From positions 1 through 39,012 of IMG/VR virus record IMGVR_UViG_3300043957_000063: a DNA stretch of 39,012 nt; one strand, written 5' to 3'. The DNA is from a virus. Both the position numbers and the translations under genes were made by a program. Under the pieces are notes generated by a model, which was not told where the DNA came from, made no database searches, and worked only from the letters and a program-made list of their open reading frames with translations. Below, in pieces: positions 2,851 through 39,012 of the stretch (the first letter of the stretch is position 1; every line of letters begins with the position of its first letter).

Positions 2851-3768
2851 ATGGCAGAGAGAGAAAAAGGCGAAACGGCCGAATACAGTGGCGAGTTGCA
2901 ACTTGCGGAGGGGATCGACATACAGTGCGGCGTTATGAAGGACGGCACACGGCTGTTGTCCGAGCGGCAGGTCAGTGCAGCGTTGGGGAACAAACGAGGA
3001 GGATCGCACTGGATTCGGCAGAAAGAGGGCAACAAGCTACCCGTCTATGTTTCGGCGGGGAATCTGAGACCATACATTTCCGCGGCATTGGAACGCAAGC
3101 TTGTTGACCACCGCCTTTGGCGGGCAAAGGGCCACGGAGGATTCGGAGCCTACGGTATCGATGCGACATCCCTGCCTGAAATATGCGATGTGTTTCTGAA
3201 GGCGCGAAGAGACCACGCGCTCCTGCCGTCACAGGAGCATATCGCGATACAGGCTGAGATACTGATGACCGCCTTGGCTAAAATCGGAGTAGTGGCTCTG
3301 GTGGATGAGGCTACCGGGTATCAGTCGGTAAGACAGCATAACGAGCTTGAGCTTTTGCTGAGTAAATATATCTCCGAAGAGCTCCAGCCATGGGCGAAAC
3401 GATTCCCCGACGAGTTCTATTCCCAAATGTTTAAGCTCAAGGGCTGGGATTACATAAATCTGGGCGCAGGAGGGAAGAAACCGAGGGTTGTCGGGAAAAT
3501 CACGAATGATATCGTCTACGACAGACTCCCGAGTGGAGTACTTGAAAGTCTTAAGAAAAAGAATCCCTCCGACGCTGATGGGCACAGAAAACATCACCAC
3601 CATCAATTCCTCACCGAAGATATTGGCGACAAGCATCTTGAAAAGATGATCGGTTCCGTTATCACTCTTATGAGGGCTTCAGGCTCATGGTCCGAATTTA
3701 TTCGACTCCTCGACCGTGCATACCCGAAGCATGGTGCGGTACAGGAAGAGTTAACGCTAGACGAATAG
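2851..3768 (+). CDS. P63C-domain-like protein (moron gene, function unknown)
   Basis: Motifs I associate with the P63C family: IQCGVMKDGTRLLSERQV, LPEICDVFLKAR, GVVALVDEATGYQ, WAKRFPDEFY, HHQFLT. GAGGA lies before the ATG. The gene is visibly A+T-rich and bracketed by terminators. Confidence 0.6.
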   Translation: MAEREKGETAEYSGELQLAEGIDIQCGVMKDGTRLLSERQVSAALGNKRGGSHWIRQKEGNKLPVYVSAGNLRPYISAALERKLVDHRLWRAKGHGGFGAYGIDATSLPEICDVFLKARRDHALLPSQEHIAIQAEILMTALAKIGVVALVDEATGYQSVRQHNELELLLSKYISEELQPWAKRFPDEFYSQMFKLKGWDYINLGAGGKKPRVVGKITNDIVYDRLPSGVLESLKKKNPSDADGHRKHHHHQFLTEDIGDKHLEKMIGSVITLMRASGSWSEFIRLLDRAYPKHGAVQEELTLDE

Positions 3769-4147: not shown

Positions 4148-4152
4148 TTACG

Positions 4153-4171
4153 TAGGCTACAGTTAGGCTAC
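4153..4171. repeat. Arm-type repeat pair TAGGCTAC (x2), left arm of attP
   Basis: taggctac at 4153-4160 and 4164-4171. The same cgtaggctac...ttaggct arrangement recurs at 4391-4412. Confidence 0.6.
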
Positions 4172-4205: not shown

Positions 4206-4269
4206 GAGAGCGCTTTGTAATCAGTCTTCCAAACTGATTACGCGGGTTCGATTCCCGTCGCCCGCTCCA
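4206..4269 (+). other. attP core: 3-prime portion of a tRNA-Gly(UCC) (anticodon arm, T-arm, acceptor 3-prime strand and CCA); not a complete tRNA
   Basis: Anticodon stem tcagt/actga with loop cttccaa (anticodon TCC). T-arm gcggg-ttcgatt-cccgt. Acceptor strand cgcccgc, then t and cca. No matching 5-prime acceptor strand (gcgggcg) is found upstream. int lies immediately downstream. Confidence 0.75.
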
Positions 4270-4360
4270 CACACGGAGCCGCACAGTGGCGGAATCCCAA
4301 CGAATACAGCCTGTCATTCCAACGATCGCAGATACTACCAAAAACATGACTAAAACTCGA

Positions 4361-4389
4361 TTGCGGTGAATTACGGTGGTTTACGGTGG
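4361..4389. repeat. Three 10-bp-phased repeats TTRCGGTGR
   Basis: ttgcggtga at 4361-4369, ttacggtgg at 4371-4379 and ttacggtgg at 4381-4389, lying between the attP core and int. Confidence 0.7.
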
Positions 4390-4392
4390 CCG

Positions 4393-4412
4393 TAGGCTAC
4401 TCATTAGGCTCA
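4393..4412. repeat. Arm-type repeat pair TAGGCTAC / TAGGCTCA, right arm of attP
   Basis: taggctac at 4393-4400 and taggctca at 4405-4412, mirroring the 4153-4171 pair on the other side of the core. Confidence 0.6.
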
Positions 4413-4434
4413 CTTTTATGCTAATATTAAAACC

Positions 4435-6165
4435 ATGGAATTAACTGATGAGTGCCAGACTGAGGCCATCTCCGAGCGCCCACAGGAACTCATCAGACGG
4501 TTATTCAAGCATCGGCGTGTTGACCCAGTTTCAAACTGCTGGTTCTGGACGGGCGGTCATACGGATAATGGGTATGGACACGTGTATTTAGACAAATCGA
4601 CGGTACTGGTTCACAGACTCAGTTATGAGATTTTCCGTGGAGCTATCCCGGAAGCCCATATCGTTGACCACCGCTGCTTTAACAGACTCTGTTTTAATCC
4701 AAACCATTTACGCTGCATTACGATCGCGGAAAACAACCAACATAGATTCGGCGCATCAAGCAACAATCGGTCATCCGGCGTCAGAAACGTTTACTGGTAT
4801 GGCTATAGGAAGAAATGGTTTGCGGCAATCCACCACAACGGCAAACAAATAAGAAGTGAATATTTCGACGATAAAGAACATGCATGCGAAGAGGCGGTAA
4901 GACTCAGAGCATTGTATTTCAAGGACCAAGGTGATAGCGATATGAAAGCCAAACACAGGAGGCCTCGCGGCACTGGAGCCGTATTTGTCGATTCACAAAA
5001 TCGGTACACATATACGCTCGAGCTACCCAATGACCCTGCGACGGGAAAACGCAGACGTAAAACATTCCGCAGCAAGGATCCGAATAAAGCCAAGGCCAAA
5101 TATCTGGAAGCTCGGAAGAAACTAATATCTACCGGAGTCCTTGCCTCGGATGTAACACCGAAACTGGCAGACTGGCTGGGACGCTGGCTCGAGGAGTTCA
5201 AGCGCCCCAACGTCAAGCCCCGCGTCTGGGAATCGTACCGCTCCGACTGCCGGAACATCACGAACAGCATCGGGGCCGTCCGCATCGGCGATCTCACAGC
5301 GGCGCATGTGCGCAAGCTGGAGAAGGACATCACCTCGACGCGCAGCAGCAAGACCGCGCTCAACGCGTATCGTCGTCTGAGCAACGCCCTCGATGACGCC
5401 GTTGGCGAGGGATTGATAGAGGTTAATCCATGTGCCCATTGCGACCCGCCCAGGGTCGAGGCGAACCCGACGGTGATACTTGATGCGGGCCAGCCCGTCA
5501 GGCTCATACAGGCCGCTTCCAGCGCCTCCGGCGAGGTGAAACGCAGGCGCGGCCAGAACAAGTGGCCGGACAGTCCCGAGGATGACGCGATGTGGAGCCT
5601 CATGTGGCGGCTCGCGTTCGAAACAGGCATGCGCCAGGGGGAGCGGTTCGCACTCACGCCTGCCGACCTTGTGGAGGTCGACGGCACTCCCGCGATCCAC
5701 GTGTGCCACGAGTTGCAGCGCTACGCGAAAGGCGCGGTCATACCCTCATGGCTCAAGGCCGAACCCATCACCAAGGGCATATGGATGGTGCCGCCCAAAT
5801 CGAAGAAGGGCGAACGCATCGTGCCAGTCAGCAAAACCCTCTGGGACGACCTCGCGGGGTGGGCGACCGATCATGAGCTGACCTCCAAGGATCTGATTTT
5901 CACCCGCAAGGGTCAGCCGCTGACCAATACGGTCGAACGACGCCGCTGGTACCGCGCATTGGAGAAGGCCGGACTACCGAGAGTGACGATACGCAGCGCA
6001 CGACACTATTTCGCCACCCAACTCGCCATAGCCGGAGCATCCGAAGACGCCCGCAAAAGCATCATGGGTCACGTCGACATCGGCACCACAGCAGGATATA
6101 CCCATTGGTCACCACAGGCTCTCGCGGAAATCACAGGAAAGACGGCGCTGAGCATCGAACAATAG
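4435..6165 (+). CDS. int: Tyrosine integrase with an in-frame N-terminal HNH_3 + AP2-like module (576-aa ORF; a conventional integrase could start at ATG 4942)
   Basis: HNH pattern: CWFWTGGHTDNGYGHV..LVHRLSYEIFRGAIP..VDHRCFNRLCFNPNHLRCIT..EN. AP2-like segment: SGVRNVYWYGYRKKWFAAIHHNGKQIRSEYFDDKEHACEEAV. Integrase motifs: RGTGAVF, TGMRQGERFAL, ARHYFATQL, IMGHVDIGTTAGYTH. No stop codon separates the modules. Confidence 0.85.
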   Translation: MELTDECQTEAISERPQELIRRLFKHRRVDPVSNCWFWTGGHTDNGYGHVYLDKSTVLVHRLSYEIFRGAIPEAHIVDHRCFNRLCFNPNHLRCITIAENNQHRFGASSNNRSSGVRNVYWYGYRKKWFAAIHHNGKQIRSEYFDDKEHACEEAVRLRALYFKDQGDSDMKAKHRRPRGTGAVFVDSQNRYTYTLELPNDPATGKRRRKTFRSKDPNKAKAKYLEARKKLISTGVLASDVTPKLADWLGRWLEEFKRPNVKPRVWESYRSDCRNITNSIGAVRIGDLTAAHVRKLEKDITSTRSSKTALNAYRRLSNALDDAVGEGLIEVNPCAHCDPPRVEANPTVILDAGQPVRLIQAASSASGEVKRRRGQNKWPDSPEDDAMWSLMWRLAFETGMRQGERFALTPADLVEVDGTPAIHVCHELQRYAKGAVIPSWLKAEPITKGIWMVPPKSKKGERIVPVSKTLWDDLAGWATDHELTSKDLIFTRKGQPLTNTVERRRWYRALEKAGLPRVTIRSARHYFATQLAIAGASEDARKSIMGHVDIGTTAGYTHWSPQALAEITGKTALSIEQ

Positions 6166-6430
6166 GAATGCCGAGAGACTCTCAACGCATCACTCAACTT
6201 TACGAAATAAAATCGATGATAATTTCATCAAACGAAACCTGCGTATTTGATTTAACAATTACTGGTCAATTACAGAAAAATTAAATTCATATAATCGGAT
6301 ATAAGTGATACGCTTTCTGTACAACAGAAAAGTGCATGTTTGATTCAGAGCCAGCGGTACACGTCTATCGTCTGGTTTTTACTTTTCAAACATTGCTTTA
6401 GCTGTTGAATAAAGGAAAGGGGCGGCAGAC

Positions 6431-6607
6431 ATGGCGTTGAGATCTTTAAGCGAAAGCTACGTAATAAATCGCGAGCCGTTAAGTCAGGAAGAGCGCAACG
6501 AATCTGCTCAGAAATTGCAAAGTTTCATGGCAGGATTCACTTCCCGTAGATTGGAAGGAAATTCGGAACTTCAGCATGAGGTTGGAATAGGCTTCAAGAA
6601 AAACTAA
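6431..6607 (+). CDS. Small ORF (58 aa), candidate antitoxin or partner of the downstream GNAT-like gene
   Basis: Below the length cut-off of the ORF track. A strong RBS AAAGGAAAGGGG at 6411-6422 precedes ATG 6431. The TAA stop at 6605-6607 lies 3 nt before ATG 6611, and the downstream gene has no RBS of its own. Translation: MALRSLSESYVINREPLSQEERNESAQKLQSFMAGFTSRRLEGNSELQHEVGIGFKKN. Confidence 0.5.
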   Translation: MALRSLSESYVINREPLSQEERNESAQKLQSFMAGFTSRRLEGNSELQHEVGIGFKKN

Positions 6608-6610
6608 CAA

Positions 6611-7231
6611 ATGGCTCTTTCATACTCATTGGTCGGAGTTAGTGAACTAGATTCACTCTCCGACCAAAAAATTGTCCAAAACCTGAAATCGCAAATGCGT
6701 GATTTTGAATGTCTAGATACCCGTACCGTAAAACGGTTTATCACCACGGAAAATGTCTATATTGCTGAGGATCATGGCGAATCTCGTACATATCTAGCTA
6801 TAAACGAAGACGACAATTCGATGATTGGTTTCTTTACTCTTGGATTAACAAGTGTCAAATGGGAAAAGATCACTTGTAGTGAAGGCTGGTCGGCCCTATC
6901 AAAGAAGAAACAGGCTAAGTATTCCAAGGGTGTACGCCAATCAACAGACGGATATGTGGGAGTATACACAATAGGAGAACTGGCGAGAAGCAGTCGGTTT
7001 ACACATGAAGATTTTCCTGGGACCGTATTGCTCAGAGAGGCAATCTCGCAAGTTATGCGGGCAAGAGAGATATCGGGAGGAAGATTTCTTCTTGTTGATT
7101 CACTTCAACATCTTTACGATGCTCTTTACAGCAAGGCTGGTTTCATCAGAATTGGGGATCTCGAGGCTCCTGACGAGGATGACGAGGCCCAGTATTGTGT
7201 GAGCATATTGACTCTGGAAAATCTACTCTAG
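6611..7231 (+). CDS. Divergent GNAT-fold protein resembling AtaT/TacT/KacT-type acetyltransferase toxins
   Basis: The motif order matches my memory of that family: DFEC..., SRTYLAINEDDNSMIGFFTL, an ALSKKKQAKY insertion, VYTIGELARSSRF, GGRFLLVDSL...LYSKAGFIRIG. The usual Q/RxxGxG acetyl-CoA loop is replaced by THEDFPG. The gene is very A+T-rich. Confidence 0.55.
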   Translation: MALSYSLVGVSELDSLSDQKIVQNLKSQMRDFECLDTRTVKRFITTENVYIAEDHGESRTYLAINEDDNSMIGFFTLGLTSVKWEKITCSEGWSALSKKKQAKYSKGVRQSTDGYVGVYTIGELARSSRFTHEDFPGTVLLREAISQVMRAREISGGRFLLVDSLQHLYDALYSKAGFIRIGDLEAPDEDDEAQYCVSILTLENLL

Positions 7232-18576: not shown

Positions 18577-18647
18577 TCCTCTGTAGCTCAACGGATAGAG
18601 CACGTAATGTTAGTGCGCGCGAGCGGGTTCGACTCCCGCCAGAGGAA
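18577..18647 (+). tRNA. tRNA-Asn(GUU)-like gene with a non-canonical shortened anticodon stem; no encoded CCA
   Basis: Acceptor stem tcctctg/cagagga (7 bp). D-arm gctc-aacggata-gagc. T-arm gcggg-ttcgact-cccgc. Anticodon loop atgttag (GTT). Only 4 clean anticodon-stem pairs (cgta/tgcg, including one G-T), and 71 nt in total. Confidence 0.6.
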
Positions 18648-18893
18648 CAGCGCCACTGTCAATGTCAGCAGTGGCTTGCGTGGAGACAGCTACCACGTAA
18701 TCGCAGAATGACACCGCGGGCAAGCTGAAATGCGGTGCTCCCCGAGAGCGCCCAAGCCTCTGCCCGCACACTCTTGCCTGGTGGTCTTACAACCTTTCAC
18801 CACCAGGCACCACACTTGCTCTGCCATGCCACATCCCAGCACGCCACACGGTGGCAGACATGAGCAGAGCACATTCAACCTAGGAGCTGACAT

Positions 18894-38803: not shown

Positions 38804-39012
38804 ATGGATTACATCAGCACCACAGCAATCGGCTGGCTGATCACGACTGCACTTGGAGGTCTCGTGGGGTTCCTCGCCTCGTTCATGCGCAAATCCGCTA
38901 ACAGAGACAAAGCCCTCACTCAGGGGATGCGTGTCCTGTTGCGTGCCCGACTGATCGACATCCACGAGAAGTATGTGGAGCACGACGAGCTGTGCCCCGT
39001 GAACGTGAAGGA
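38804..39012 (+). CDS. 5-prime part of the wrap-around lysis-cassette membrane protein (continues at 128..251)
   Basis: ATG at 38804. The reading frame continues through the terminal overlap. Confidence 0.6.
   Translation, partial: MDYISTTAIGWLITTALGGLVGFLASFMRKSANRDKALTQGMRVLLRARLIDIHEKYVEHDELCPVNVK
38886..39012. repeat. Terminal overlap copy 2, identical to 1-127
   Basis: Direct comparison of the two window ends. Confidence 0.95.

Follow-up and report, generated by a model that had tools for sequence, protein, structure and literature searches.

An HNH-AP2 homing endonuclease-like module fused in frame to the N-terminus of a temperate phage tyrosine integrase

A single open reading frame (ORF) that begins as a homing endonuclease and ends as a phage integrase raises the question of whether it encodes a new kind of recombinase or an ordinary one to which a mobile nuclease has become attached. 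Such an ORF occupies positions 4435..6165 on the plus strand of the IMG/VR virus record IMGVR_UViG_3300043957_000063, which we analyzed over its positions 1 to 39,012 (the window). It was noticed in an initial annotation made from the sequence alone, and direct reading of the sequence bears out that it is one uninterrupted run of 576 codons, free of internal stops, in which no stop codon separates an HNH_3-AP2 module from a tyrosine integrase (Int). The most likely answer is that the nuclease is a hitch-hiker and the recombinase is of no new kind. We favor with moderate confidence a reading in which int took up, at its 5′ end, a selfish HNH-AP2 homing endonuclease gene whose product now forms the N-terminal part of the Int polypeptide and spreads the cassette that encodes it, with Int itself working normally. 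The parts of the ORF are:

4435..4941, plus strand: HNH_3 and AP2 homing endonuclease module, complete except for a stop codon (residues 1-169)
4942..6165, plus strand: tyrosine integrase with its own methionine, in frame with the HNH module (residues 170-576)
4942..5169, plus strand: arm-binding N-domain of Int and linker, with low GC content at third codon positions (GC3; residues 170-245)

The fusion is real and not an assembly artefact. The identical protein of 576 amino acids (aa) is encoded on 10 contigs and a 576-aa variant on 7, and in several of these contigs the fusion ORF belongs to an integrated prophage, where it is preceded by the LysE gene and tRNA-Gly and followed by phage genes. 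Diverged alleles are present in a JGI contig (L001), a Logan assembly and an NCBI genome (GCA_047722595.1); altogether, the fusion is known from more than 15 independent contigs and at least 10 samples, which represent three HNH alleles, one of them decayed. This third allele, from a Bifidobacterium psychraerophilum genome and an independent Logan assembly (L011/L012), still has an open junction; its copy in GCA_047722595.1 (L011) carries an additional A in the N-terminal HNH segment (5960-5966) and a deletion of about 75 nucleotides (nt) in the int core (around 6688), occupies the same LysE/tRNA-Gly site and is an apparent prophage remnant. A stop codon or frameshift that divides the two modules, which in the initial annotation would have spoken against the fusion if seen in relatives, was found in none of them: the ORFs of the window, of L001 and of the prophage L002 are open from codon 1, the sole disrupted copy (L011/L012) is broken inside the HNH part and the int core, and the differences between alleles at the junction keep the reading frame.

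Public annotation hides this architecture. RefSeq WP_273298331.1 lists the identical sequence as a 407-aa integrase, and the JGI call for the L001 gene (5833-7572) gives 523 aa from an internal methionine (Met57), although the ORF is really open from the equivalent of the first ATG and encodes 579 aa. For the B. psychraerophilum remnant (L011 6001-6693), the public entry is WP_415460090.1, an 'HNH endonuclease signature motif containing protein' of 230 aa.

Profile searches recover the HNH_3 pattern that had been placed at about residues 30-105: Pfam HNH_3 (PF13392) matches residues 58-101 with 51.1 bits against a cut-off of 24.8 (E-value 1e-13), and PHROG 3593 ('HNH endonuclease') spans residues 18-163 (E-value 1e-39). 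Within this head, the His-Me finger core covers approximately residues 28-108 and the predicted AP2 domain residues 112-165. The AP2 domain initially proposed at about residues 112-162 stands on fold and family context but not on a Pfam match above threshold, as the Pfam AP2 hit at 115-156 reaches 17.1 bits against the 33.3 needed. Its support comes from PF00847 (AP2), present in more than half of the 120 best head relatives in a profile search, and from an AlphaFold model of residues 1-176 (100 homologues; predicted local distance difference test score 85), in which three strands and a helix (119-165) come after the HNH core. The best PDB matches of this model in Foldseek are I-HmuI (1u3e; probability 0.99) and the AP2 domains 3igm and 7et5 from Plasmodium and Arabidopsis (probability 0.96-1.0), and the N-domain of lambda Int is also among the matches. 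The family-invariant C35, W38, D78, H79, C86, N88, P89, H91 and N100 are kept in both fusion lineages, and the window and L001 alike keep the residues of the beta-beta-alpha-metal motif (D78, H79, N88, H91 and N100) together with C35, C81 and C86. Over its whole length the head can be aligned, at 37-47% identity, with free-standing HNH(-AP2) proteins of 150-200 aa that phages of Mycobacterium and Arthrobacter encode. An exhaustive HMMER search found no relative more than 50% identical to the head outside the fusion clade, a word-indexed homology search with residues 1-169 alone gave no match, and the PADLOC library of defense systems returned a single type of hit, a weak generic homing endonuclease match. 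By sequence and fold the head thus belongs, at full length, to the HNH_3-AP2 homing endonucleases, from which it departs in not being free-standing.

From M170 onward the ORF reads as the standard phage tyrosine integrase that had been proposed. Phage_integrase (PF00589) matches residues 447-559 with 60 bits against a cut-off of 27.1 (E-value 3e-16), PHROG_1, the main integrase family, covers residues 187-566 (E-value 4e-54), and R400, K455, R523, H546 and Y555 are invariant or nearly so in 43 relatives. The 409-412-aa integrases of the Bifidobacterium crudilactis type, which are 83-90% identical over the rest of the protein, have their Met1 at the position of M170 in the alignment, and the nearest phage integrases, those of the Bifidobacterium phages PMBT6 and Bbif-1, are similar only from about residue 171. 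In the AlphaFold model, the arm-binding domain has strands at 183-185, 191-197 and 207-213 and a helix at 216-233, a predicted fold like that of the lambda Int N-domain and also of AP2, and a weak, sub-threshold Pfam AP2 signal lies within it at residues 198-231. We rejected the idea that this domain is a duplicate of the AP2 domain of the HNH module: the two show no pairwise sequence similarity, and the arm domain has clear orthologues in the integrases that lack the head (int-only relatives). In a full-length AlphaFold model the integrase is confident and the head unconstrained, the combined HNH and integrase MAFFT alignment having been misaligned and discarded. Sequence comparison identifies residues 170-576 as a complete lambda-type tyrosine integrase apart from the N-terminal extension.

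The junction falls where two complete genes would be expected to meet. The free-standing relatives of the head stop 0-5 residues past the position aligned to D169, one 169-aa relative exactly there, and M170 aligns with Met1 of integrases; because of this, the ORF is a complete endonuclease gene minus its stop codon, joined directly to a complete integrase gene. The stop codon that free-standing HNH-AP2 genes possess is absent from the HNH part in the window, L001 and L002, and the canonical integrase start at the arm-binding domain is not kept, as the ORF runs 169 codons upstream of the conserved methionine. In int-only relatives, which use the same tRNA-Gly site, the arm sites are followed by a leader of 15-90 nt with a Shine-Dalgarno (SD) sequence and then by the ATG. 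The two other frames are closed at the junction, by a TGA at 4943-4945 that overlaps the int ATG (ATGA; likewise in L001) and by TGATAG at 4932-4937.

Substitutions between the alleles of the window and L001 allow the constraint on each part to be gauged. The ratio of non-synonymous to synonymous substitution rates (dN/dS) is 0.105 over the 169 codons of the HNH-AP2 part (dS 1.39; 65.5 synonymous and 53.5 non-synonymous differences), 0.009 in the Int arm domain (dS 0.66) and 0.119 in the rest of int (dS 0.76). These values show purifying selection on both halves; the head, in particular, is translated and constrained, given so low a ratio and the invariant residues that it keeps. By the same comparison, the fusion predates the split of the window and L001 alleles.

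Composition and identity profiles delimit what has moved together. The nuclease part had been described by eye as more A+T-rich than the integrase core, which holds (46.9% versus 62.5% GC), but the low-GC block does not end with the nuclease and continues through the arm-binding domain of Int to about position 5170: GC3 is 51.5% in the HNH part and 47.4% in the arm domain, against 77% in the rest of int and 69-70% in int-only arm domains. The arm domain is 98.7% identical in aa sequence between the fusion lineages and only 64-68% identical in nt sequence to int-only relatives. Between L001 and the int-only locus L010, nt identity in the arm domain is only 64.5%, as against 89.5% for the left flank and 91.1% for the int core. 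Comparison with L002 adds the following feature:

4285..5006, plus strand: block of 722 nt with zero differences from the prophage L002, which takes in the P′ arm and all of the HNH part and reaches 65 nt into int

Beyond 5006 the two differ by 7-22 positions per 100 nt (7-20% divergence across int), their homology is limited to 4221-6159, the other genes of L002 being unrelated, and zero mismatches over 722 nt at 7% divergence has a probability of about 2e-23. Because of the shared low GC3, the drop of identity between L001 and L010 in the arm domain and the L002 block, the HNH module and the arm-binding domain appear to be one low-GC cassette exchanged among these prophages, bounded by the P′ arm sites on one side and by the junction of the arm-binding and core-binding domains on the other. 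Nuclease genes at the boundaries of genetic exchange are a published pattern in phages (PMC10448857), which the cassette fits.

The attachment site of the phage (attP) had been placed directly upstream of the ORF, and it is indeed there: its core equals the last 49 nt of tRNA-Gly(TCC), flanked on both sides by arm-type repeats.

4151..4171, plus strand: P-arm pair of arm-type repeats, CGTAGGCTAC and TTAGGCTAC, left of the attP core, from the sequence and a repeat search
4221..4269, plus strand: attP core, 49 nt identical to the 3′ part of the host tRNA-Gly(TCC), from the anticodon loop to the CCA-less end
4360..4389, plus strand: three tandem repeats of 10 base pairs (bp), ATTRCGGTGR, in the P′ arm, invariant in all relatives with or without HNH and possibly sites for Xis, Int or a host factor
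4391..4413, plus strand: P′-arm pair of arm-type repeats, CGTAGGCTAC and TTAGGCTCAC, at the left boundary of the HNH cassette

Homology breaks at 4221, where the 49-nt identity to tRNA-Gly(TCC) begins. ARAGORN finds no complete tRNA at the attP core in the window and a full tRNA-Gly(tcc) in the prophage loci L001-L005, beside the same ORF in the integrated copies. The second repeat of the paired arm-type repeats has the consensus TTAGGCT[A/C]AC, and homology to int-only relatives stops directly after the P′-arm pair. Arm repeats of the TAGGCTAC type pair with N-domains of the form 'RRPRGTG...TYTLEL' (window, L001, L010 and L011), and those of the TAGTCCC type with N-domains of the form 'RRTKGSG...VYRLEL' (L006 and L007); the paired repeats at 4151-4171 and 4391-4413 are accordingly best seen as candidate arm-type sites, the type of which co-varies with the N-domain of Int. 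The notion that two repeat classes might serve two AP2-like domains was dropped, as both classes occur in int-only relatives.

Because its first and last 127 nt (1-127 and 38886-39012) form an exact direct repeat, the window represents a circularly closed genome of 38,885 bp, the phage in its excised, attP form. A prophage at tRNA-Gly (L018), whose sole integrase gene is the fused ORF, shares 5,684 nt with the window at 100% identity, starting at the core and going rightwards; with the same phage found in the attP and the attL state, integration and excision must therefore work. By its gene content this Bifidobacterium phage is a temperate siphophage, with genes for a GH25-LysM lysin, a P63C-domain protein, a helix-turn-helix (HTH) repressor and a Bro-N/ANT-domain antirepressor.

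Signals for expression are found at both potential starts of the ORF:

4422..4427, plus strand: TAATAT, a -10-like TAnnnT hexamer 7 nt before ATG 4435, candidate int promoter
4928..4935, plus strand: SD-like AAGGTGAT within the last HNH codons, 6 nt before ATG 4942

A TAnnnT hexamer lies 6-7 nt before the first ATG in all three alleles (TAATAT in the window, TATCCT in L001 and TACCAT in L011), and TAATAT also follows the arm sites in the int-only locus L007, there succeeded by a leader with an SD sequence. A generic sigma-70 scan did not call TAATAT at 4422..4427. No SD sequence precedes ATG 4435, the duplex energy being +1.5 kcal/mol (+1.0 in L001). Because the hexamer lies so near to an SD-less start, the sequence suggests that the first ATG is served by a leaderless mRNA from the int promoter. 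Both the ATG at 4942 (M170) and the GGTGAT at 4930-4935 lie where the initial annotation had put them, and the duplex of SD and anti-SD at this ATG has an energy of -7.9 kcal/mol in the window and -9.4 in L001 (AAGGAGAT); the former value is typical of the gene starts of this phage, and about 10% of the window's ATGs attain it. As the integrase retains its own ATG and an SD-like sequence, the ordinary 407-aa Int is probably also made, beside the 576-aa fusion. Residues 165-182, the linker between the halves, are predicted to be disordered.

We posit the following course of events for the reading that we favor. The endonuclease gene would sit between the int promoter with the P′ arm sites and the start of int, where it replaces the 5′ leader of int; with the loss of its stop codon, translation from ATG 4435 would necessarily yield a 576-aa HNH-AP2-Int protein, the halves of which are joined by the predicted disordered linker. 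As a speculation, an ancestral HNH gene may have had a stop codon overlapping the start of int, and the gain or loss of one base close to the end of that gene could then have produced the fusion. The integrase part would carry out normal integration and excision at the 49-nt tRNA-Gly(TCC) core. The most likely role of the nuclease part is to cut or nick, close to the attP-int junction, those alleles of related phages or prophages that lack HNH, whereupon repair would copy the HNH gene with its flanks, namely the P′ arm and the arm-binding domain of Int. This reading draws on the module being a complete homing endonuclease gene, on its presence or absence at one locus and on its signature of mobility: integrases 83-90% identical to that of the window lack the module, and L010 differs from L001 only in the cassette. 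The constraint on the head, the retained start for a separate Int, the working integration and excision and, as a precedent for the location, the GIY-YIG gene next to int in mycobacteriophage Demsculpinboyz speak for it as well. Of the two origins proposed initially, a nuclease gene that landed between attP and int and then became fused is favored over a functionally coupled nuclease-recombinase by the match of D169 to the natural C-terminus, by the int-only relatives and by the cassette.

Several points weigh against it. Nuclease activity, target and homing are deduced rather than observed; initiation at M170 is likewise read from the sequence, and that RefSeq begins the protein there reflects how the gene was annotated and carries no weight as evidence. 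We did not find an empty-site allele with the same arm-binding domain, every integrase with that domain carrying the HNH module. The 722-nt identity could reflect ordinary homologous recombination among prophages and not nuclease-driven repair. The sampling is narrow, its three HNH alleles coming for the most part from a single set of JGI metagenomes. Finally, the fusion persists across alleles at a dS of about 1.4 and the stop was never restored, as a selected fusion would show.

The last point leads to the alternative that the fusion itself is the selected unit, the HNH-AP2 head having been recruited as an additional module for sequence-specific DNA binding or nicking at attP/attB or as an Int-tethered nuclease against rival att/int alleles, which we consider possible but unlikely. 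It would account for a junction design that is identical in alleles at 75% aa identity, with no indels and no restored stop, for the 4 synonymous versus 1 non-synonymous changes in the junction codons, for the constant association of HNH and arm-binding domain in one low-GC cassette, for the tandem of AP2 and Int arm-binding domain with the same predicted fold, and for the position of the first ATG at the expected transcription start of the int promoter; that the carrier phage integrates and excises is also in keeping with it. The unrestored stop was, however, discarded as evidence when taken by itself, for codons 161-169 offer about 4 one-step paths to a stop and about 1-2 events would be expected by a rough estimate, which is not significant. 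Against a selected fusion, the head is an unmodified protein of the homing endonuclease type with its natural C-terminus at the junction, the integrase retains its methionine and SD-like site, disorder is predicted for the linker, int-only relatives with no head make use of this tRNA-Gly site and of these arm-site types, neither repeat class at attP is specific to the extra AP2 domain as both occur in int-only relatives, and the fusion is confined to one narrow clade. A stronger form, in which the 576-aa protein is a nuclease-recombinase hybrid whose arm- and core-binding Int domains bring an active HNH nickase or nuclease, with a second DNA reader of the AP2 type, to att DNA and whose link is selected, strikes us as improbable; such a hybrid might bias or stimulate integration and excision, or cut the attP/int or occupied attB of rivals ('integrase-guided homing' or exclusion).

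An opposite possibility is that only the 407-aa integrase is made and that the 5′ 507 nt are the untranslated or non-functional remnant of a dead endonuclease, open merely by chance. RefSeq/PGAP annotates just the 407-aa integrase for the identical sequence, an SD sequence is absent before ATG 4435 and the module is decaying in L011/L012; yet a dN/dS of 0.105 over 169 codons at about 23% nt divergence, free of stops and indels, is unexpected for untranslated DNA, every family-invariant residue is kept, and the conserved TAnnnT 6-7 nt before the ATG fits leaderless translation. In the decayed copy, moreover, the integrase is broken too, which bespeaks a dead prophage and not a dead HNH module beside a live int; we therefore have serious doubts about a dead head. 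That a missed stop or indel merges two genes through an error of assembly or sequencing is hardly credible: most of the contigs do come from one JGI metagenome assembly family, but the open junction is seen in more than 15 contigs, in a second allele with 77% nt identity, in an independent Logan run and in an NCBI genome.

The fusion is rare and confined to prophages associated with B. crudilactis and B. psychraerophilum. Another HNH-integrase fusion was found neither among 44 integrase relatives nor in 50,697 phage records at a coverage of at least 80%, and an integrase domain is present neither in the 120 best HNH relatives nor in the ten longest matches with an N-terminal HNH (357-536 aa) among the 150 listed of a family of 166,460 proteins, these ten having multi-HNH or HTH architectures. 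Protein-pattern scans gave no hit in GTDB genomes or JGI metagenome contigs and, in IMG/VR, only a provirus cut from L002 and one weak, unrelated HNH; degenerate DNA patterns of the junction gave none in genomes or metagenomes and, among viral contigs, only the provirus derived from L002. MargaretKali gp29/gp30, taken up as a possible in-frame analogue split by one stop, was dropped, as gp29 showed neither HNH nor AP2 features on inspection. No paper found describes an HNH-integrase architecture. The initial remark that no described integrase with this architecture was known to its author hence agrees with the literature and with the 44 integrase and 120 HNH relatives, and a working phage integrase that bears a homing endonuclease in frame at its N-terminus, conserved and under selection, seems not to have been described previously.

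Each half has familiar counterparts. HNH-AP2 proteins are a recognised family of homing endonucleases (PMC5714182; Magnani et al. 2004, as cited in PMC10448857). In length and in the order of core and AP2 domain, the head resembles the free-standing HNH_3-AP2 enzymes of the Mycobacterium phages Cane17 (gp77) and Murai (gp54) and the Arthrobacter phage Persistence (gp41), and like the genes of this type (His-Me finger group 2, with I-HmuI, PDB 1u3e, as the prototype), it is patchily present among related phages; unlike them, it has neither a stop codon nor an SD sequence of its own and continues into a 407-aa integrase. The int-only Bifidobacterium integrases share with the fused one the tRNA-Gly(TCC) site beside the LysE gene, the layout of arm sites and the catalytic residues, and differ from it in starting at the residue aligned with M170 and in having a high-GC3 arm domain. 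The closest known arrangement is that of mycobacteriophages Demsculpinboyz (gp51/gp50), ThetaBob and Yoshi, where a GIY-YIG gene abuts the tyrosine integrase gene on its 5′ side in the same orientation, overlapping it by 47 nt in Demsculpinboyz; there, however, the nuclease is of the GIY-YIG type and the two genes lie in different frames, with their own stop and start, and produce two separate proteins. A selfish nuclease gene set in or against an essential phage gene that still works, and co-expressed with it, is also seen in Aeromonas phage Aeh1, where mobE splits nrdA; in that case the host gene is divided into two polypeptides, whereas here the nuclease is joined to the N-terminus of the host protein. 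An intein was ruled out, since the module lies at the extreme N-terminus with no N-extein, the N-terminus of the integrase is complete and no intein family of Pfam or NCBIfam matches.

Under the reading of a captured endonuclease gene, this locus would show how a selfish nuclease gene can settle within a gene essential for lysogeny and leave it functional, borrowing the int promoter and supplying a ribosome-binding site from its own coding sequence. It also bears on the modularity of integrases, as the nuclease would mark a boundary of recombination at the level of a single domain, with the arm-binding domain and the arm sites traveling along. Such fusions are invisible in current annotation, where RefSeq has a plain 407-aa integrase and JGI starts at internal methionines. 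If the link between the halves were functional, the protein would be a natural counterpart of the engineered fusions of nucleases or nickases with integrases.

Other parts of the window were noted in passing. A tRNA-Asn(GTT) gene lies at 18577-18648 (plus strand), distant from the attachment site. Directly downstream of int, the segment 6200-7231 is A+T-rich (32-46% GC) and holds ORFs of 58 aa and 206 aa (GC3 39%), neither of which matches Pfam, NCBIfam or PADLOC; from its sequence it looks like a moron or cargo region, and related prophages carry other genes there. The P63C-domain gene lies upstream of attP at 2851-3768 (plus strand), and a 65%-identical copy is found at 6296-7225 (minus strand), downstream of int, in the int-only loci L006 and L007; judging from these positions, the P63C module has moved across the att/int region.

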